Assembly: GCA_016186955.1 (NCBI GenBank)
Contig: JACPKP010000002.1
Location: forward strand, 5,566 to 69,565
Source: Candidatus Daviesbacteria bacterium
GTDB lineage: Bacteria > Patescibacteriota > Microgenomatia > Daviesbacterales > UBA10151
Length of the DNA stretch: 64,000 nt
Reading direction: 5' to 3'
In this document: in pieces, positions 3,281 to 56,162 of the stretch
Layout: every line of letters starts with the position of its first letter
Position numbering within the stretch: the stretch's first letter is position 1
Notes under the pieces: model-generated
Told to the model about the DNA's origin: nothing
Databases searched by the model: none
The model's input: the letters and a program-made list of their open reading frames with translations, nothing else
Program-made: the position numbers and the translations under genes

Positions 3281-3712
3281 TTAAAGGCCAATCCTGTACT
3301 CCCTGCCTCCCCATTCACCTAAATCAGCAAAACAATCCAATTTTGGTCTTTTTAGCGCTGGCTCAATATAGAACTTGCCAGAACCCCTATATAATTTATT
3401 GAAATATCTTGCGTAGGTATTTGGATAAATTTCTCCACGAGGAAATTTCTTCCAGATACCAAAATGAAAAACCCAAGTTTCGTTGTCTCTTTTGGGCGAA
3501 GGCACACTTTCTGTCCCCAATGCAAAAGCGCTGTCATATCTGTTATTTCTCAATACCATCCCCCAGTCTAATTTAAAAAGCCGCCAAAACTCTTGTAAGC
3601 TCCACGGGCTAGTCTTTTGCCGCCAAAACTCTGCAACAACCTTATCCCCATCCTCTTCCCTCCATTTGATTGCCCTTTCAAAAAGTTCTGTAAAAAACTC
3701 TTGTTCCCGCAT
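3281..3712 (-). CDS. Hypothetical Trp-rich protein
   Basis: 143-aa ORF with coding-like composition. No recognisable motif. Confidence 0.35.
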   Translation of the reverse strand: MREQEFFTELFERAIKWREEDGDKVVAEFWRQKTSPWSLQEFWRLFKLDWGMVLRNNRYDSAFALGTESVPSPKRDNETWVFHFGIWKKFPRGEIYPNTYARYFNKLYRGSGKFYIEPALKRPKLDCFADLGEWGGREYRIGL

Positions 3713-4774: not shown

Positions 4775-4803
4775 TTGCAATACCTATTTTTATAGGGTAT
4801 AAT
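4775..4803 (+). promoter_or_regulatory. Sigma70-like promoter (TTGCAA-17 nt-TATAAT) upstream of the 1065-aa ORF
   Basis: TTGCAA at 4775-4780, 17-nt spacer, TATAAT at 4798-4803, ATG at 4818. Confidence 0.4.
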
Positions 4804-4817
4804 CCTTTTTTGCAAAT

Positions 4818-7800
4818 ATGGACAAAGAGAAAAACACATCGTGGCATAAAATCTTCTTTTATGAATCCGAGCTGAAAAAGTCTTGGGGCATCAAACACTA
4901 TATTCAGGATTTCAAAATACCTATCTTTGATAGCTACAAACAAGCAGTCAAACTGCCAGTTGTTGACGCAGAACAACCCAATGAAAACATCCCGGAACCA
5001 AACGAAGAAATCATCAACAGAAGAAAAGAGATTACAAGGAAGATATCTGAGCAGCAGGAGATAGCCAGACAGGCAATATTTATAGCCAGATCAAAAGGTA
5101 TGCTTGATGAAGAATATACAAAACATAAAGAAGCCTTAATCAAAATTGCCCTTGAGGACCAGTTCCCAAGGATAAGAAGAGAAGCAGCGGTACAATTGAC
5201 GTTTCTTGCTAATTCCGAGTCTGATGGAGAACTCGTCAGGCATATGGCTACTTTAACCCGCAGAATTATCCGCCAAAAAGGGCAAATAGCTAAACTTAGC
5301 ACTGAACAGTCTTTGGCTGTCAGAACCAGCTGTTCTTTAAGTGATTCTTACGCCCAAAGGTCTGCAGTCCAGCTGGCAACCGCAGAGGTTTTAGATCCCA
5401 GGATCAGAAAACTGGTCTTAACAAGACTGCTGAAAGCAGGTATTTTTGACGGTTACAGTGGTGTGTCAAAGTTTATCAGTAATCACATTTTTAGAGACAG
5501 CAGAGATATCCAATGGGACAGGCTAAAACCCTTCACAACTTTATACTCCCACCCAAGCAAAGGGCTCCGCGTTTCAGCCCTTAGATCAATCGAAAAGAAA
5601 ATGGAAAATACCGGTCTTTGGCTGGCAGATGGTATCACCAGCTACCGGGATAAAACACCAAATATCCCTGAGGAAGCATTTTTACAAATACTCATCGCTT
5701 CCGAAGAAAGCGACCTACCAATCAAAAGGTTTGACTTATTATTTCAACTGGCAAATAAAAACCGGGCTATTTTAGAAGAATTAACCCTCCTTATTACATC
5801 TTTCCTGGAAGAAAAAGGTATCCGGGAAAATAATTTTTACGGCTATTCCTGGGTTTTGCGCGCACTTTTGCATAATAACCCAAAACCAGAATCATTACCT
5901 CTCCTGCTTAGCTGCCTTAAGAGATCGCTTTTTCTGTTAAAACAAACGCATGACAACCGGGATGACTGTCTTAAATTCTTAATTTCTCTATATGACCCGT
6001 CAGGGAAAAAATCTATTACAGCACGGAGAAATTACTACGGTATTGAGTGGCCATTACCAAGGGATACAAAACCACCTGCTCTTAAGATAATTAATCAAAC
6101 TTTAGACAAGCATATACTTGAGCTTGTACAAAAAATTCTGCCTAAAAAGGGTTTAAAACCTGAAAACATTGTGCAGATTAGTTCTGTTTGGGGTGGCATG
6201 GAACCTTTTTTGATCTATGTATCTAAACTAAAAAGCTGCAACTCAACATTCTACCAAGACATCATAAGCCTTATGGGTAAAGTCATAGCCCATACAGATC
6301 CTCCTACTTTCAAGGCATGGAAAAAGTGGCGTTATAACCTAAAGAATAAAAAAGTCAAAGAACAGGTTGGGTTTTTGGAAAGTGAAAGTCTAGACGCATA
6401 TGCAAATGATTATATGCTGAATGCTTCAGACATACTAAACAACAATTTACCTGAATTGATAACTAAAACCAAGGTTATTTTTGAGCAGTTTTTATCCTGC
6501 CCTGAAAAGTTTGTGCCAGAATCTGTTTCAAGTCAACTGGCATGTTTTCTGGCAGAGTATCGACCTTCAGACAGTAACTTTGAGTACATGGCAAAAATTG
6601 AAATATCGCGGAAAGAAGAATTACTCGGGGTTTTTACTAAATATATTACCTTAAAAGGTGACCTTGAACTTGCAAAACGTGCTGAAAAAAGTATTCAGGA
6701 GCTAAATGCATCGGCAGCCCAAAAAAGGGTGGCTATGGGAAAAGCCGGATTCTCTCACCTTAAAACAACCGGACAGATCCATGCTGAGATTGAAAGAATT
6801 AGGAAACGGTTGGGCGCTGAAAATGAAATTAAGGTGAAAAACCTTGCTGCAAACGGTGTTATTAAAAAATATGTACAAGCCAAAAACCATCTGGAGTATT
6901 TAAATTCCAAAAACATTCAACCATCAAGCGAAGATTTAGCTAATCTTTCATTGCTTCAAAACCAACTTATTAACACCCTGGGTAACGGGTTTGAAAATCT
7001 GCTGAGGGATTATCAAAGCATAGCTTTCTTGACTGCCAACCTGCCAAAGGATATCGACCCTCAACTGGCAAGCTTCTTAGAGAGGTATGCATTAACAAAG
7101 CCTTCGCATCAAAAAAGGATTGGGGTTGTAGAAGTTTTGATCCGGGAAAAACTCAGGGAGTTAGTTGACGATTTAGAGTATTGCTATCAAAGAAGATTTA
7201 TAAAACCCATACTGGATTCAGATGATAAAGAAGTCTACAAAACCATAAAAAATTTGAAGATACAAAAAGAGCTGTTTTCTTTGCTTGCTGCAAATCCTTC
7301 GACTTTATCTGTAGCACAGTTTACAGAAAAATTAGAGTTTGTTAAAAAACAGTTAAGTGAATTTAATGAGTTAGACGAAAAACTGGCATCTATTCAGGAA
7401 AGCCTGAGAAAAGAAAACCCCGGGCAAGATAACCACTTACTTTTTGTATTTACTGACAATCCACTGGTATGCCTCACTGTGGGAAAATATCCTGAGGGAG
7501 CTGTTTCATGCCAGAGCTACTGGCAGAGCAGTACAACTTTAGCAGCCTACCCAGCTGATGCAATGACCAAGCTATGCCTTTTGATCGACAAAAATAATCT
7601 GCCAGAAGATGTGGCCGAAAAACTGACCTGTGCAACAACCAATGAAGAAAAGTTAGAAATATTCAATAATAATACTTATGCTTTTTTAGAAGCAATGATC
7701 GCCAGAAGAGTCACTAAAATTGTCCGTGATGACCAAAGCCAGGAAGCCTGCATATTCCTTGAGCCGGTTTATACAAGCCATAATCAAACACTAATGACTA

Positions 7801-9390: not shown

Positions 9391-9935
9391 TCTTCCACTT
9401 ATTAAATCTTTACGATTTGTTTCAACTCTTTTGTTTTGGCGTAAATCCTACCTTCTTTAGCCAATCTTTGATAATATAAACCATCATCCTTTTGTGATTC
9501 GCTGCCAAAACTCATGAGGCAATCATAAGACACGCGTCTATTAAAGTCAATAGACCCAATGTCAACTGTAACTAGTTAGTATTTCCCAGTAAACTGTCAT
9601 CCTGAGCGTAGCGAAGGATATATATTTCATTATATTCTTCGGCTTTCAGCCTCAAAAGAGGACGCCTTTTGATCCTATAACGCTTTTGATCCTATAATCA
9701 ACCAACCGCCCCTTCCCTGCTCATAGCTAGTAGCCTGTTTAACTCAACTGACTACTACCATAAAGAGTATGTGTCAACGTAACCCACCCCCCAGGTGTAT
9801 TAGCTTGGCACCCTATCTTTTTTAACAATTTTAACCACTTGAAAGGTGGCGCTGCTGGAAAAAACTGAGTTAATACAAATTACTTACTGGAGATAACTGA
9901 ATAGTTACTGTCAACTCTATAGATCTGATCTTAAT

Positions 9936-30707: not shown

Positions 30708-31296
30708 ATTTAGTTGCTTTTAACACAACATACCCTTCCTTGTTTGCTATTATCTCATGAGAGGAAAAATATTTTTCAAATAGTCGTTTGACAAATGGTT
30801 TCATTCTTGATTGTATAACCCAATAAACATGACCATTTTCCTTTAAATGATCCACACATGCTTTGGTTGCCTCCTCTAAATATTCATTACCTAAATGCTG
30901 CGCAGGATTTGATAGTATCAAATCATATTTTCTATGTGCTTCAGCGCTAAAATTGTCGCTTAAGCATACCTTAATATTTTCAAGCTTATTCAGCTTTGCA
31001 TTTTCTTTTGCTAAATTAATGACTCTTAAATTGACATCAAACAAGTGAGTAACTCCTTTTGTATTTAGTTTCGCAGCTACAAAACCAATTATTCCTGTTC
31101 CACAACCTAAATCAGCAACTGATGATCCATTATTAATTTCCATCATCTCAATCAGCAACCTGCTCCCTAAATCTAGACCATGTTTAGAAAACACACCTGG
31201 TTTGGTGCGGAATTTAATTTCAAATCCCCGTAAATTTGCTGTAACAAGACTGTCATTCCTGGCTTGACCAGGAATCCAGATATCAGATTTCTTCAT
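30700..31296 (-). CDS. Class I SAM-dependent methyltransferase (MTS/RsmC-like small-domain methyltransferase)
   Basis: VADLGCGTGIIG (motif I) and ILSNPAQH (NPPY-like motif IV). Confidence 0.7.
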   Translation of the reverse strand: MKKSDIWIPGQARNDSLVTANLRGFEIKFRTKPGVFSKHGLDLGSRLLIEMMEINNGSSVADLGCGTGIIGFVAAKLNTKGVTHLFDVNLRVINLAKENAKLNKLENIKVCLSDNFSAEAHRKYDLILSNPAQHLGNEYLEEATKACVDHLKENGHVYWVIQSRMKPFVKRLFEKYFSSHEIIANKEGYVVLKATKYG

Positions 31297-31561
31297 ATAA
31301 ATCTTTCCATTTTGGATTTTGTTTTTCTATTAACTCTAATTTCCAATTTCTCTTCCATTTTTTTAATTGTTTTTCCCTCAATATTGCTTGCCCCACATCT
31401 TCCGTTTGTTCAAAATATACTAATATATGAATCCCATATTTCTCTGTAAATCCCTTTACCAATTCATTTTTATGTTCCCATTACCCTTCTTTGTAAATCA
31501 TTTGTCACACCAATATACAAAGTCCCATTTCTTTGGCTAGCCAGGATGTAAATGTAATACA
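31296..31561 (-). pseudogene. GIY-YIG nuclease-family gene disrupted by a 1-nt frameshift
   Basis: The minus strand from the ATG at 31559-31561 reads MYYIYILASQRNGTLYIGVTNDLQRRVMGT*. The +1 frame continues HKNELVKGFTEKYGIHILVYFEQTEDVGQAILREKQLKKWKRNWKLELIEKQNPKW. A C-run at ~31477-31479 is the likely indel site. Confidence 0.55.
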
Positions 31562-31669
31562 TTTTTCTAGATCCCTGCTTTCGCAGGGATGACAGTTACA
31601 TTTTGCCTTAAAAGAACAAAAAACCCCGGTTGCCCGAGGCATGACTAGTTACGAGAAACTAGTTACCAG

Positions 31670-33841: not shown

Positions 33842-33917
33842 TTGTCATTGCGAGCGATTAGCGTGGCAATCTCGTTTAACAAGATCCTCACGTCGGATGC
33901 ACTCCTCAGGATGACAT
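33842..33917. repeat. GC-type palindromic element (GTCATTGCGAGCG family), intergenic copy
   Basis: tgtcattgcgagcgattagcgtggcaatctcg ... cgtcggatgcactcctcaggatgaca. The arms match elements inside uvrD and at 9595. Confidence 0.5.
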
Positions 33918-34409
33918 TTCCTTCCTCCCTACTACTACCTTAGCTGGCCTCAGCACTTTTCCATTTAAATTATAACCCTTTTCTGCAACTTCTAATATTT
34001 TATCATATTCCCCTTCACGCATATCTACAGCTTCATGTAAGCTTGGATCAAACCTTGTCCCGAGCGAAGTCGAGGGATCTATTTCAATTTCCTCCAAACC
34101 CTCATCCTTCAAAACCTGTTGGAACTGTTTAACCGCAAGCTCCATCCCTTTATACCATCCAGAGGCTTTTTCTTCTTCACTTGCCCCTTCCATAGCCTTC
34201 TCCAAATGGTCCAATACAGCCAAAAGCTTCCTGATTAACTCAGTTGTTGCCCAGTTTGTCAACTCAGATCTCCCCTCAGCCACTCTTTTTTCTAAATTCT
34301 GATAATCAGCCACTGCCCTTTTTAATTGATTCTGCAGATTATCAAAATCCTGCTTTAATTTTTCAAAGTCATCTTTGCTGACCATATTTTCATTTTTCTG
34401 TTTTTTCAT
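33906..34409 (-). CDS. grpE: Nucleotide exchange factor GrpE
   Basis: A coiled-coil N-region followed by VADYQNLEKRVAEGRSELTNWATTELIRKLLAVLDHLEKA. Confidence 0.85.
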   Translation of the reverse strand: MKKQKNENMVSKDDFEKLKQDFDNLQNQLKRAVADYQNLEKRVAEGRSELTNWATTELIRKLLAVLDHLEKAMEGASEEEKASGWYKGMELAVKQFQQVLKDEGLEEIEIDPSTSLGTRFDPSLHEAVDMREGEYDKILEVAEKGYNLNGKVLRPAKVVVGRKEMSS

Positions 34410-53209: not shown

Positions 53210-53467
53210 TCAGCTGGTGAGCAGCTTAATTAGTTCTGCTTTAGGAGTAACTCCAATTTTTCTTGCTATCTCCTTGCCGTCTTTTTCTATGATATATGTC
53301 GGTATACTCATCACCCCATACTGTGAGGCTTTTTGGGGATTTTCATCAACATTGATTTTTTCCACCTCAATCTTATCCCCCAATTCCTTTTCAATCTCCT
53401 CAATAACAGGGTTCATTATTTTACATGGCCCGCACCAAGGAGCCCAAAAATCTAAAAGCTTAACCAT
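53210..53467 (-). CDS. trxA: Thioredoxin
   Basis: WAPWCGPCK active site. 85 aa. Confidence 0.85.
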   Translation of the reverse strand: MVKLLDFWAPWCGPCKIMNPVIEEIEKELGDKIEVEKINVDENPQKASQYGVMSIPTYIIEKDGKEIARKIGVTPKAELIKLLTS

Positions 53468-53549: not shown

Positions 53550-53912
53550 CTAAATCTGAATGTCTGGAAAGGAGTTTTTGATAAATGCTTTTATCTCTTT
53601 CAGATAACCTCCATGTCGTCTATCTATTTCTTGTCCATCCTCCATAGTGATGAACGTGGGTACACCTATAATATCAAACTGCTGCTTGATTGACTCAACA
53701 AAATGATGATTATTATCAGGATCTATATTAATCTCTTCATAAATTATTCCATTTGGTTCTAAAACCTCTTGTTTAAGTTTTTCAATAATGGGCTTCATCC
53801 CTGTACATGGTCCGCACCAATCTGCATAAAAATCTAACAGTTTTCTCTCCATAAAATTATAGCTCTCTAATACGTAATCTTGCTTCCGTGATATTTTCTT
53901 CTGCCTGTTCAA
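53550..53912 (-). CDS. Thioredoxin-like protein
   Basis: WCGPC active site. 120 aa. Confidence 0.7.
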   Translation of the reverse strand: MNRQKKISRKQDYVLESYNFMERKLLDFYADWCGPCTGMKPIIEKLKQEVLEPNGIIYEEINIDPDNNHHFVESIKQQFDIIGVPTFITMEDGQEIDRRHGGYLKEIKAFIKNSFPDIQI

Positions 53913-54046
53913 ACCGCTTTACCAATTCAGGGAGTCTATTTAACATAATTTTTTTGAATTTTCTTAAATCTTCCAACTCTTGCCTCTCTTTTCCATCCAG
54001 TGGTTCTGTTTCTAACATTAGGTATAAAGATATACCATTTTTTGTG

Positions 54047-54075
54047 CTTTGTCAAACATACAGTGTGGTGTTATA
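54047..54075 (+). promoter_or_regulatory. Sigma70-like promoter (TTGTCA-17-TATAAT) upstream of uvrD
   Basis: TTGTCA at 54047-54052, TATAAT at 54070-54075, ATG at 54114. Confidence 0.35.
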
Positions 54076-54113
54076 ATTTTTCTTCGATCGAAGCGGAGCA
54101 GTACATTGTTTAT

Positions 54114-56162
54114 ATGCCCAATTTACTTGATGATTTAAACCCTATCCAACAGAAAGCAGTCCAAACCACAGAGGGTCCGACCCTAATCCTGGCTGGAGCA
54201 GGTTCAGGAAAAACGCGGGTTTTAACTTATAAAGTGGCTTTTCTAATCTCCGAGAAAAAAATCCAACCGGAAAATATTTTAGTTGTGACTTTCACCAACA
54301 AAGCCAGCGGCGAAATGAAAAATCGCATCCTCAATTTGCTCTCCAACAACCAACAACCAGTAACCAGTAACCAACCTGTGATGGGTACATTCCATTCCAT
54401 CTGCGCCAAAATCCTGCGCCGCGAAGGCCACAATATCGGCCTTAGTATTTCCTTTACAATCTACGATGAAAACGACGCCATGGATGCGGTAAAACTTGCC
54501 ATGGGTAATTTAAACATAGCCACCAAACAGGTAAATCCGGGCGCTGTCAGACATACAATTTCCGGCGCCAAAAATGAACTGGTTTCCGAACTTGAATATC
54601 CCCAATATGCCCGCGGTTTTTTCCAGGAAACTGCCGCTAAAATTTATCTGGAATATCAAAAAATCTTAAGGGAAAACCAGGCATTGGATTTTGATGATCT
54701 ACTCATGAAAACTATCCAGCTTTTTCAGACCGTTCCAATAGTCCTCACCCGTTACCAAAACCAATTTAAATATGTTTTGGTTGATGAATACCAAGACACC
54801 AACGCTGCCCAATACCAGTTAATTAAACTCCTGGTTCAAAGATACAGGAATATATGTGTAGTTGGTGATGCTTCCCAGGCAATTTATGGTTTCAGGGGAG
54901 CAGATTTTCGCAACATTGTTAATTTCCAAAAAGACTATCCGGAAACTAAAGTGTTTAACCTGGAGCAAAATTACCGTTCAACCCAAATTATTTTGGATGT
55001 AGCCCAGGCCGTAATTTCTGAAAATAAACTTCACCCAATTCTAAAACTTTGGACAGAAAAAAAAGTGGGTCCCAAAATTGCCGTCTATCAGGCTAGATCT
55101 GAAGTGGATGAGGCTGTCTTTATTTTAGATGAGATCAGGAAGTTTGCGAGGGGTGGCGGAGGACGGGGAGCCCCATCAACCGCCCGCATCCTGAGTGACC
55201 GAAGGGAGTCGAATGAGAGGACGTCGGATGGGGCTGTCCTCCGACAGGACCCCGAGCAAAATACATTAACCCTTGCTGATTTTGCAATTTTGTACAGAAC
55301 CAATGCCCAATCCCGGGCAATTGAAGAAGTTTTCCTGAAGGCTGGCGTACCTTATAGACTGGTTGGTGGCGTCCAGTTTTATGAGAGAAGAGAGATCAAA
55401 GATGTTTTGGCTTATCTTAGATTAGCAGCAAATCCCAAGGACTCTGTTGCCAAAAAAAGGATCGAAAAATTAGGCAAAGGCCGCGCCCAAAAATTTTATG
55501 AACTGGCAGACGTCATTGCGAGCGGAGCGAAGCAATTTCAAAAAAACGAGATTGCCACGTCCTCCGATGTCCATCGGAGTCCTCGCAATGACGGATACCA
55601 CACTTTACAGCTCATGGACTTAATCCTAGAAAAAACAGGCTATTTAGAATATCTTGATGACGGGACAGAACAGGGCAGGTCCAGAATTGAAAATGTTAAA
55701 GAACTCCGTTCTGTGGCGGAACAATTTCCCAATTTAGTACAGTTTTTAGAAAATGTAGCTTTAGTACAGGATAATTACCATCCAGACCAACAATCAACAA
55801 CCAACACCCAACTACCAACTGACGCAGTGACTTTAATGACCTTACATGCCTCCAAAGGTCTGGAATTCCCCACAGTTTTTATTGTTGGCATGGAGGAAGG
55901 TTTATTCCCTCATTCCAGATCTATGCTAAACTCCAATGAAATGGAAGAGGAAAGAAGGCTGGCTTATGTGGGAATTACCAGGGCAAAACAACAACTTTAC
56001 CTAACCTATACCAGGACCAGGCTTTATTTTGGCACCAGGTCTAATAATTTAGTTTCCAGATTTTTAGGTTCGATTCCTGAAAATTTACTGGATCAAAAAT
56101 TTTCTTCAAAACTTATTGACCCCGATCTAATCGGGGTTGACGAAGATGATTGGCTTAATTAA
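54114..56162 (+). CDS. uvrD: ATP-dependent DNA helicase UvrD/PcrA carrying two in-frame palindromic-element insertions
   Basis: Walker A AGAGSGKTRVLT, motif TFTNKA, QDTN and LEQNYRS. The preferred start is MPNLLDDLNPIQ. Inserts are GGGGRGAPSTARILSDRRESNERTSDGAVLRQDPEQ and DVIASGAKQFQKNEIATSSDVHRSPRNDG. Confidence 0.9.
   Translation: MPNLLDDLNPIQQKAVQTTEGPTLILAGAGSGKTRVLTYKVAFLISEKKIQPENILVVTFTNKASGEMKNRILNLLSNNQQPVTSNQPVMGTFHSICAKILRREGHNIGLSISFTIYDENDAMDAVKLAMGNLNIATKQVNPGAVRHTISGAKNELVSELEYPQYARGFFQETAAKIYLEYQKILRENQALDFDDLLMKTIQLFQTVPIVLTRYQNQFKYVLVDEYQDTNAAQYQLIKLLVQRYRNICVVGDASQAIYGFRGADFRNIVNFQKDYPETKVFNLEQNYRSTQIILDVAQAVISENKLHPILKLWTEKKVGPKIAVYQARSEVDEAVFILDEIRKFARGGGGRGAPSTARILSDRRESNERTSDGAVLRQDPEQNTLTLADFAILYRTNAQSRAIEEVFLKAGVPYRLVGGVQFYERREIKDVLAYLRLAANPKDSVAKKRIEKLGKGRAQKFYELADVIASGAKQFQKNEIATSSDVHRSPRNDGYHTLQLMDLILEKTGYLEYLDDGTEQGRSRIENVKELRSVAEQFPNLVQFLENVALVQDNYHPDQQSTTNTQLPTDAVTLMTLHASKGLEFPTVFIVGMEEGLFPHSRSMLNSNEMEEERRLAYVGITRAKQQLYLTYTRTRLYFGTRSNNLVSRFLGSIPENLLDQKFSSKLIDPDLIGVDEDDWLN
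55141..55245. repeat. GC-rich palindromic element inserted in-frame in uvrD (copy A)
   Basis: Inverted repeats catcctgagtgac / gtcctccgacaggac and tcggatg...cctccga. GC-rich against AT-rich flanking codons. Confidence 0.55.
55510..55593. repeat. GTCATTGCGAGCG-family palindromic element inserted in-frame in uvrD (copy B)
   Basis: cgtcattgcgagcggagcgaagcaatttc...gagattgccacgtcctccgatgtccatcggagtcctcgcaatgacg has perfect outer 12-bp inverted termini and nested inner palindromes. Confidence 0.65.

Follow-up and report, generated by a model that had tools for sequence, protein, structure and literature searches.

In-frame palindromic repeats at two linkers of a uvrD/pcrA-type helicase gene from a Candidatus Daviesbacteria bacterium

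The stretch of 64,000 nt analysed here, hereafter the window, belongs to a Candidatus Daviesbacteria bacterium (GCA_016186955.1, contig JACPKP010000002.1, positions 5,566 to 69,565 of the forward strand) and contains a uvrD/pcrA-type helicase gene whose coding sequence encloses two palindromic segments, designated copy A and copy B. The gene is a single open reading frame (ORF, 54000-56162) with an ATG at 54114, and its product of 682 residues has all the UvrD/PcrA domains. The protein encoded by 54114-56162 matches the PcrA structure 1pjr as a complete UvrD/PcrA-type helicase (E=1e-163) and is 100% identical to the NCBI entry 'UvrD-helicase domain-containing protein [Candidatus Daviesbacteria bacterium]' (P0001). 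A preliminary description of the window had reported that this ORF stays open through both segments, and translation confirmed that the frame crosses copy A and copy B without interruption. The features of the gene are the following, with the evidence in brackets.

54114..56162, plus strand: uvrD/pcrA-type helicase gene, host of both inserts (ORF and translation, PcrA match, NCBI identity).
55143..55260, plus strand: copy A, a 118-nt palindrome rich in guanine and cytosine (GC), labelled F5 (fold, GC content, absence in baseline orthologues, family copies).
55189..55213, plus strand: degenerate core of a TGTC/CCTGAG-type unit in the apical loop of copy A (match to locus L213).
55511..55593, plus strand: copy B, an 83-nt head-to-head dimer of CGTCAT-headed units, labelled F1 (terminal inverted repeat, fold, family copies).
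55511..55539, plus strand: left unit of copy B, CGTC-ATTGC-[GAGCGGAGCGAA]-GCAAT-TTC (module scan).
55548..55593, minus strand: right unit of copy B, CGTC-ATTGC-[GAGGA CTCCGATG GA CATCGGAG GACGTG]-GCAAT-CTC (module scan).
55508..55786, plus strand: tract of high identity to locus L001, positions 4788-5066 (nucleotide comparison).

The GC content is 0.653 in copy A, 0.53 in copy B and 0.407 in the remaining uvrD sequence; an enrichment far above the flanks, originally ascribed to both segments, is strong for copy A and modest for copy B. Folding was evaluated through RNA and DNA energies against 200 shuffles, with two stretches taken from uvrD as controls. Copy A (55141-55262) folded at -57.1 kcal/mol as RNA (z -3.15) and at -30.1 kcal/mol as DNA (z -3.56), copy B (55508-55596) at -40.8 kcal/mol (z -5.47) and -24.1 kcal/mol (z -5.08), respectively, and in none of the four tests did any of the 200 shuffles match them, while the controls had z values of +0.14 and -1.93. 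The strong dyad symmetry described for both segments was thus confirmed, and so was the RNA folding that had been proposed as its check, both segments folding far better than their shuffles.

Copy A has the termini TTTGC-GAGGGGTGGCG ... CAGGACCCCGAG-CAAA and codes for residues 344-383 (FARGGGGRGAPSTARILSDRRESNERTSDGAVLRQDPEQN). Its span, initially given as 55141-55245, had to be corrected to 55143-55260, the right edge of the palindrome (stem TTTGC/GCAAA) lying 15 nt past the earlier limit. The CGTC/TGTC head is not present at these termini. In the apical loop, 24 of the 25 nt at 55189-55213 match the TGTC-CCTGAGCGACCGAAGGGAGTCGAAGGA unit that L213 has in the spacer 3' of uvrD (E=1.2e-5 in a search of 1.68 Mb of fetched loci), and CATCCTGAG in this core is common to the units at 9598 and 33905; because its apical loop carries such a degenerate TGTC-type unit, copy A can be regarded as a composite element. 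A second F5 copy was not found in the window, where TTGCGRGGGGTG with up to two mismatches gave 9 matches against 8.5 expected.

The ends of copy B form a perfect 12-nt inverted repeat, CGTCATTGCGAG / CTCGCAATGACG, exactly as first described, the span moving by one base from 55510-55593 to 55511-55593. The terminal 12-mer, with at most one mismatch, occurs three times in the window against 0.11 expected. Copy B codes for residues 467-493 (VIASGAKQFQKNEIATSSDVHRSPRND). Taken alone, the left unit offers a 5-bp stem only (z 0.14), and the right unit has its own inner hairpin (DNA fold -10.2 kcal/mol, z -2.69); the stable structure of copy B is a dimer-level, REPIN-like hairpin, with single units that are barely stable. 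The loops of F1 units, at 55511-55539 and at many other loci, also contain GCGAAGC, which we take to be the classic, very stable d(GCGAAGC) mini-hairpin and which may matter for the single-stranded DNA (ssDNA) form. The two inserts, initially treated together, stand as members of different families.

Site A, which holds copy A, is a loop that joins helix 330-346 to the strand leading into motif IV, and in the alignment with PcrA it corresponds to about residue 347 of that protein; site B, which holds copy B, lies at the tip of 2B, a domain that is strongly reduced in these helicases of the Candidate Phyla Radiation (CPR). PcrA and UvrD structures have no aligned counterpart of either site. By the domain limits of PcrA structures, site A presumably falls in domain 2A. 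In Rep/UvrD/PcrA helicases 2B has a regulatory role, and its deletion leaves helicase activity intact, which is consistent with a permissive site B. In an AlphaFold2 model built from a 42-sequence alignment (mean predicted local distance difference test score, pLDDT, 74.9), pLDDT fell below 50 at residues 347-381, within the copy A peptide, and at residues 482-490, in the second half of the copy B peptide, both stretches being flanked by confidently folded elements; the first half of the copy B peptide was modelled as extending helix 455-479, with falling confidence. According to this model, the encoded peptides are mostly low-confidence flexible loops, predicted to be disordered. The alignment bears out the earlier placement of both inserts in variable regions, and surface exposure, claimed with it, is suggested by the low AlphaFold2 confidence only.

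The 42 aligned UvrD orthologues are 64-85% identical to the window protein. Their alignment, which had been suggested as a check of lineage specificity, yielded eight proteins of 620-630 residues with no insert at either site (P0015, P0016, P0023, P0032, P0038, P0045, P0078 and P0114), while in the others the two sites hold unrelated palindromic inserts. The DNA of the orthologue loci identifies these insert peptides as translated palindromic elements, and at least six recurring peptide/DNA families were distinguished, to which we gave the labels F1-F6.

F1: peptide VIASEAKQS...PRND.
F2: peptide VILSE.SEGS...QND.
F3: peptide VIPAKAGIQ.
F4: peptide RGDAEEGSR...EDGRRDT.
F5: peptide RGGDKRGAPS...SDGAASRQDPEQ.
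F6: peptide PSRAAGRMI..ENDKAEHEGV.

A given family may hold site A in one genome and site B in a second one, and both sites are occupied by a single family in P0029 (F1), P0039 (F2), P0037 (F4) and P0014 (F5); elements with the termini of copy A were seen again in L004, at both of its uvrD sites, and in L217, at site B. Turnover was followed on a neighbour-joining tree inferred from 596 well-aligned columns outside sites A and B. At 93-95% core identity, P0003 carries F1, P0008 an F2 remnant, and P0009, P0010 and P0018 no element; P0088 (F1) and P0108 (F5) share 94% core identity, and P0021 (F2) and P0025 (F4) are 88% identical. The closest relative of the window uvrD, L001/P0002, has 89% core identity, a near-identical copy B and a diverged F4-type element at site A. 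Decayed insert remnants are common (P0008, P0095, P0004, and P0245 in DNA topoisomerase I, TopA). In orthologue pairs that are 94-95% identical in their core, the entire linker between the TTTTATGA and TL codons differs, so that insertion boundaries, and any duplication, cannot be fixed.

Copy B had been proposed to be a dispersed repeat and not native helicase sequence, and the searches outside uvrD supported dispersal for the families of both inserts. The copy A family was sought in metagenome contigs with the pattern GAGGGGTGGCG-N60-90-CAGGACCCCGAG, which returned 88 copies at 87 loci, many of them in other genes, with up to five copies on one 108-kb contig. The flanks mostly have a GC content of 0.35-0.50 and the elements of 0.56-0.79, flanks of at least 0.55 being found for 7 of the 84 non-redundant copies. 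Within frames that remain open for at least 50 codons on each side lie 29 of the 88 copies, and Pfam domains were detected in 23 of the 26 host ORFs tested. These hosts include TopA (three copies), DNA polymerase I (PolA, three), Mur ligases (four), BioD-BioA (two), radical-SAM enzymes (two), DnaX, a RadA-like protein, TsaD, anthranilate synthase (TrpE), phosphoribosyl pyrophosphate synthetase, a family-2 glycosyltransferase, alanine racemase, a pyridine-nucleotide oxidoreductase and a tetratricopeptide-repeat protein. The length between the fixed termini is a multiple of three in 17 of 24 intragenic and in 23 of 50 extragenic copies (p=0.051), a bias that is suggestive of selection for frame preservation. 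TopA provides a second gene with a series of insert presence, remnant and absence, the insert being found in five close orthologues, as a stub in one (P0245), and not in more distant ones; the nearest named TopA proteins belong to Levybacteria and Patescibacteria. The flanks of 90 aligned elements showed no target-site duplication or clear target motif, consisting of a 2-3-nt extension of the palindrome followed by heterogeneous AT-rich sequence. The copy A family is distinct from that of copy B and dispersed in low-GC Microgenomates-like genomes, and it is apparently undescribed in the literature found. As a separate observation, window positions 55244-55267 (site A) and L004 positions 3382-3405 (site B) share the identical 24 nt CAGGACCCCGAGCAAAATACATTA, including the 9 nt AATACATTA (Asn-Thr-Leu) that resemble native flank; this identity could be due to chance through shared codons or to flank transported with the element.

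The copy B family was searched for in one genome per species with the exact termini GTCATTGCGAG-N40-70-CTCGCAATGAC, and at least 120 loci in more than eight phyla were recovered. Among the matches listed are Alpha-, Gamma- and Deltaproteobacteria, Bacteroidota, Chloroflexi, Planctomycetota, Cyanobacteria and Patescibacteria, with hosts such as Bradyrhizobium, Sphingomonadales, Micavibrio, Rickettsiales, Coxiellaceae, Pedobacter, Mucilaginibacter and Flavobacterium; in these listed matches the copies of other genomes are mostly extragenic, and those of other phyla mostly have CCAG or CTC ends. In-frame copies in low-GC genomes were located in UvrA (VIASKAKQSHSTGSANNGIATSPLAPRND), GMP synthase (GuaA) and a penicillin-binding-protein transglycosylase. 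No target-site duplication was visible in the flanks of 124 elements, whose ends are uncertain by 2-3 nt.

Within the window, a module scan returned 11 matches against 2.9 expected, and two intergenic features are related to copy B.

33843..33916, no strand assigned: intergenic head-to-head dimer of a TGTC-ATTGC unit and a TGTC-ATCCT unit (sequence, shared blocks, fold).
9595..9622, plus strand: solo intergenic unit, TGTC-ATCCT-[GAGCGTAGCGA]-AGGAT-ATA (module scan, fold).

Copy B was first said to share arms with both. This was verified for the dimer at 33843-33916, which has in common with copy B a 13-nt terminus and a 16-nt internal reverse-complement block and whose minus strand folds with z -3.93, and not for 9595-9622, where the likeness is limited to the unit pattern TGTCAT..GAGCG.AGCGAAG. 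The dimer overlaps the 3' end of an ORF on the minus strand (33906-34409), and the TGA in its TGTCATCCTGAG head is the stop codon of that ORF; since the stop lies inside TGTCATCCTGAG, the repeat has rewritten the C-terminus of the encoded product.

In the comparison with L001, positions 55508-55786 contain 11 mismatches in 279 nt (3.9%) against a background of 20.4%, the uvrD genes of the window and L001 being 81.7% identical overall. The tract begins three bases to the left of copy B and ends about 190 nt beyond its right edge, and third-position identity is 89% (57/64) in 55594-55786 and 62% (341/548) elsewhere (Fisher p=6e-6). These values suggest recent recombination or gene conversion, with the tract anchored at the edge of the element. 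The inner hairpin of the copy B right unit has a single change relative to L001, in the 2-nt loop at 55570-55571 (TC in the window, GA in L001), which is a reverse complement, as though the loop had been inverted.

A third group of features combines repeat units of canonical geometry with a nuclease gene.

31251..31278, plus strand: canonical CGTC-type unit of the repetitive extragenic palindrome (REP) kind, TGTC-ATTCCTGG-CTTGA-CCAGGAAT-CCA, in the 3' flank of the ssn-like pseudogene.
31286..31562, minus strand: frameshifted GIY-YIG (Ssn-like) nuclease gene with a reconstructed product of 92 residues (translations, Pfam).
31568..31594, minus strand: canonical CGTC-type REP unit TGTC-ATCCCTGC-GAAA-GCAGGGAT-CTA.

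The first unit has an 8-bp stem and a 5-nt loop (z -3.61), and the second an 8-bp stem and a 4-nt loop (z -5.28), with its minus-strand end a few nucleotides upstream of the ssn-like ATG. The reconstructed product, which requires one frameshift, matches Pfam PF01541 (E=2.8e-15). Inverted units thus abut the GIY-YIG gene on both sides, a layout that copy A and copy B do not have, and the same repeat-ssn-repeat arrangement is intact in two loci of Parcubacteria and Moranbacteria, L218 (2967-3339) and L220 (2969-3323). At least 7968 homologues were found at E<=1e-10, the best 120 being 69-82% identical; these best 120 (P0121-P0240) come from Rhodocyclales, Omnitrophica, KSB1, Zixibacteria, Parcubacteria and Moranbacteria, mostly on contigs of about 1 kb. 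Such similarity across distant phyla on such short contigs suggests frequent horizontal transfer together with repeat-induced assembly breaks. Repeat-encoded ORF extensions occur in 13 of 18 extended homologues. Small GIY-YIG proteins of the Ssn type have been described to bind CGTCAT-headed hairpins as ssDNA and to cut a few nucleotides upstream, ssn genes being typically flanked by such repeats, and in Neisseria the Ssn/NTS system modulates the integration of transforming DNA (Chenal et al., 2025, Nat Commun 16:2388; PMC11893778). The association between GIY-YIG genes and REPs could be reconstructed from the window, and no novelty is claimed for it because it has already been published as the Ssn/NTS system.

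Taken together, both segments are very probably non-autonomous selfish palindromic repeats that landed in two permissive linkers of UvrD and are tolerated there as flexible loops. Their persistence would be due to what each contributes, a hydrophilic stretch of whole codons, free of stops, that leaves the helicase fold unbroken. Lineage-specific presence and absence, the occurrence of several families at each site, the differing occupants of near-identical orthologues, the in-frame persistence and the dispersal of both families are direct observations. The palindromic form, the conserved head and the lack of a target-site duplication suggest that the elements may spread via single-stranded hairpin intermediates. 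For the CGTCAT-headed class, the shared grammar and the co-occurrence of a frameshifted copy with two flanking units at 31251-31594 suggest that Ssn-type GIY-YIG ssDNA nucleases might be involved. Occupied alleles could also pass between relatives by homologous recombination, as indicated by the high-identity tract that begins at the left edge of copy B. The two hot spots would mostly result from selection that removes insertions elsewhere in the protein; they are probably an effect of survivorship, perhaps the sole places where an extra 25-40 residues are harmless, and a preference for the two uvrD sites may exist.

Several points weigh against this account. Neither for the two families nor for CGTC elements in the literature found has a transposition or homing event been shown, and translation of the inserts is deduced from intact frames. 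The enrichment in multiples of three is borderline (p=0.051), and the element count for this genome, about six, comes from the 64-kb window only. Copy A has no CGTCAT head, and an enzyme associated with it was not found. As to the role of Ssn, the gene in the window is frameshifted, the 8-bp ATTCC/ATCCC stems flanking it are unlike the 5-bp ATTGC stems of copy B, and no F1-type flank occurs in the 18 Ssn homologues with ORF extensions. GIY-YIG genes were not found in the other 1.68 Mb of fetched loci, and the published SRM pattern HGTCWYN(0-2)YYVSBRHN(0-5)WNVSBRGN(0-2)RNCYNB had no match on either strand of the window, nor in any of seven units tested singly, while the NTS positive control matched.

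The tract shared with L001 also lends itself to a different explanation, in which allelic exchange takes the place of transposition: one or a few old entries into uvrD would have left occupied and empty alleles that are now shuffled among related Daviesbacteria by transformation and homologous recombination, possibly stimulated by hairpin-specific nicking, with the hot spots as polymorphisms maintained by recombination. The drop in divergence and the third-position identities over the 279 nt fit this explanation, as do the different occupants of near-identical orthologues and the modulation of transforming-DNA integration by Neisseria Ssn/NTS (PMC11893778). We regard it as possible but doubtful, and the nicking and the maintained polymorphisms as equally tentative: it leaves unexplained why the same families are present in TopA, PolA, Mur ligases, UvrA, GuaA and intergenic sites, and why a family that lies at site A of one genome lies at site B of a second one. 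Allelic exchange is best seen as a complement to insertion and not as its replacement. A combination of nuclease and exchange, in which the hairpin repeats of CPR/Microgenomates are miniature homing elements and a nuclease cut is followed by repair from an occupied allele acquired by transformation, would explain the repeated re-colonisation of the two linkers, the tract at the edge of copy B and the in-frame position, in housekeeping genes, of roughly 30% of the copies of the copy A family. We consider it rather unlikely, and similarly so its details, namely an Ssn-like nuclease for the CGTCAT-headed class and another partner for the copy A family, cutting at or near the element or the empty site.

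That the inserts are selected functional modules is a notion with a low probability, whether the peptides tune UvrD (auto-inhibitory 2B domain, partner binding) or, just as improbably, the mRNA or ssDNA hairpins regulate uvrD or act as nuclease or recombination signals in repair genes. Hosts involved in DNA metabolism are indeed frequent (UvrD, three TopA, three PolA, DnaX, a RadA-like protein and UvrA), but an excess of large multidomain proteins with linkers is to be expected among hosts that tolerate insertions. Likewise, copy B is 96% identical where the uvrD genes are 82% identical, yet this identity continues through about 190 nt of coding sequence of the ordinary kind, a pattern better explained by recombination than by constraint on the element. 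Baseline orthologues, moreover, work without an insert, occupants are unrelated in sequence and frame (VIAS.., VILS.., VIPA.., RGDAEEG.., PSRAAGRM..), remnants are common and the peptides are predicted to be disordered. Native, lineage-specific low-complexity linkers that are GC-rich and self-complementary by chance are scarcely credible: both sites are naturally variable in length in this helicase family, but copies with exact 11-/12-nt termini lie in other genes and intergenic positions, in the window and elsewhere, the folds are far beyond shuffles and eight close orthologues lack the segments, so that the dispersal data refute this idea in practice. An equally negligible probability attaches to an assembly or binning artefact, in which repeat-induced chimeric joins would have put the elements into uvrD. 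The sequences are metagenome-assembled, repeats break assemblies and contigs of only about 1 kb harbour many of the Ssn homologues; nevertheless, the frame is kept across both inserts, independent assemblies of other samples have copy B at the identical position (L001, GCA_964522265), and L004 and L212-L217 have related elements at the same sites.

Insertion of selfish palindromes into permissive linkers has close counterparts among known repeat systems. CGTC-tagged REPs were defined by Di Nocera, De Gregorio and Rocco (2013, BMC Genomics 14:522; PMC3733652) by a CGTC/TGTC head (variants TGTC/CCTC), a stem of 8-9 bp starting from AT, a loop of 4-5 nt and a tail of approximately CCA; they are mostly head-to-head dimers, and a dedicated transposase was not found. 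The same study equated Neisseria dRS3 and the Rickettsia palindromic elements (RPEs) RPE-4 and RPE-6 with CGTC-tagged REPs (RPE-4/RPE-6 corresponding to CGTC-4/CGTC-1), tabulated the UvrD/REP helicases of R. palustris and K. olearia among REP-decorated proteins, and described the loops of Bradyrhizobium CGTC-1 as 'of different length'; the latter may be the copy B family. The analogy with RPEs drawn in the preliminary description was therefore apt, and the novelty it implied is lower, intragenic CGTC REPs in repair genes being already published.

Copy B resembles these REPs in the CGTC head of its units, and the units at 33843, 33916, 9595, 31251 and 31594 in a TGTC head, in each case followed by AT. 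Both copy B and 33843-33916 consist of two units placed head to head and able to form a larger hairpin together (the head-to-head form of all 124 matched elements of the copy B family follows from how the search was built), the elements occur in many phyla, some copies are in frame, including in DNA-repair genes and UvrD/REP helicases, and most have no adjoining transposase. A stop codon donated to a neighbouring ORF, as at 33906, has a precedent in the same paper for the termini of GTAG REPs and not for CGTC units. The units of copy B differ, however, in their 5-bp stems (ATTGC/GCAAT) and loops of 12 nt and about 29 nt, and the canonical geometry is found in 31251-31278 and 31568-31594, not in the uvrD units. 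Against the consensus tail CCA, the tails are TTC/CTC in copy B, CTC/CTT at 33843/33916, ATA at 9595, CCA at 31251 and CTA at 31594. Copy A lacks the tag, and CPR/Patescibacteria were outside the survey of Di Nocera et al. (2013). Copy B would accordingly rank, by its sequence features, as an atypical member of the pan-bacterial CGTC-headed REP superfamily.

RPEs are in-frame palindromic repeats of unrelated housekeeping genes (Ogata et al., 2000, Science 290:347), according to the summary in PMC10969869. The present elements share with them the form of palindromes of about 100-150 bp, in frame and translated as an extra, fold-compatible peptide, the existence of several families and the high intragenic share; the same behaviour was found in UvrD, TopA and the 23 Pfam-confirmed hosts of the copy A family, and in UvrA, GuaA and the penicillin-binding protein for the copy B family. 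The host, in contrast, is a CPR bacterium and not an intracellular alphaproteobacterium, the likeness of copy A (F5) to RPE families is one of behaviour, and expression has been shown for RPE-bearing proteins, whereas here translation is read from the frames alone. By analogy, the elements can be classed as working like RPEs or intragenic REPs.

The Ssn-associated NTS/SRM repeats resemble the present elements in their CGTCAT-headed hairpins, in the repeat-ssn-repeat layout (31251-31594, L218 and L220) and in single-domain GIY-YIG proteins of about 92-98 residues, but the role published for this system lies in cutting ssDNA and modulating transformation and not in inserting repeats into genes; the link of Ssn to copy B consists of a common head and grammar only, and there is none to copy A. 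REPIN/RAYT systems (Bertels and Rainey, 2011; Nunvar et al., 2010) are similar as inverted doublets forming one long hairpin, non-autonomous and with no apparent target-site duplication, whereas REPINs have GTAG-type heads, a Y1 transposase (RAYT) flanked by repeats and an almost wholly extragenic distribution. No Y1 transposase was found in the window, and the 1.68 Mb of loci gave one strong match (an IS200 in L001) and one weak match (L094); neither a Y1 transposase nor a GIY-YIG gene was found adjoining copy A or copy B. The IS200-type transposase of L001 (2596-3030) lies between a thioredoxin gene and uvrD, is absent from the window and has subterminal hairpins, CCGCGGAC...GTCCGCGG and CCCCGCCCT...AGGGCGGGG, that are unrelated to CGTC units. 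A RAYT/IS200 mobiliser was rejected for these reasons. Miniature inverted-repeat transposable elements derived from DDE transposons were also discarded, terminal inverted repeats being present and direct duplications not visible in the flanks of the 90 copy A-family and 124 copy B-family elements, whose ends are uncertain by 2-3 nt. Rfam returned no match at the gathering threshold anywhere in the window, and for 55050-55700 none even at E<=1. No literature description of such elements in CPR/Patescibacteria was found, with incomplete coverage that makes this weak evidence of absence.

The phenomenon is a CPR instance of a documented class (RPE or intragenic REP) and not a new principle. What it adds is an apparently undescribed, often intragenic palindrome family, an atypical CGTC-headed dimer and a two-site hot spot with rapid turnover. 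In-frame selfish palindromes thus reach the CPR, whose tiny genomes are usually considered streamlined. A single essential repair helicase with two linkers, at least six families and turnover at 93-95% core identity amounts to a natural experiment, in which the movement of elements, the tolerance of proteins and the origin of new linker peptides can be addressed. For annotation, length variation and 'hypothetical' low-complexity segments in UvrD, TopA, PolA, Mur ligases and DnaX of CPR bacteria can be repeat-derived, peptide motifs such as VIASEAKQS...PRND being footprints of DNA repeats and not protein domains. The window, in which CGTCAT-headed elements occur together with an ssn-like unit and a recombination tract, also makes the proposed link between Ssn, hairpins and recombination testable outside Neisseria, and if the repeats were homing elements, reduced genomes would have a steady supply of new protein linkers.

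Some minor observations concern uvrD and its surroundings. Islands of high GC content were discarded as an element detector, the 99 found in 64 kb being insufficiently specific. Upstream of uvrD, two thioredoxin-family ORFs lie on the minus strand (53210-53467 and 53550-53912), while relatives have one thioredoxin gene and a DNA_binding_1 gene at that position. Canonical units were also observed in L213 (12720-12747), in the spacer after the downstream G5/3D gene, and in L214 (606-633), inside the annotated 5' end of uvrD, which suggests that the true start codon of the latter is further downstream. Finally, the UvrD orthologues P0055 and P0089 (978-993 residues) match Pfam PF14890, presumably an intein-type domain, and from these matches a third kind of selfish insertion seems to be present in the UvrD gene family.

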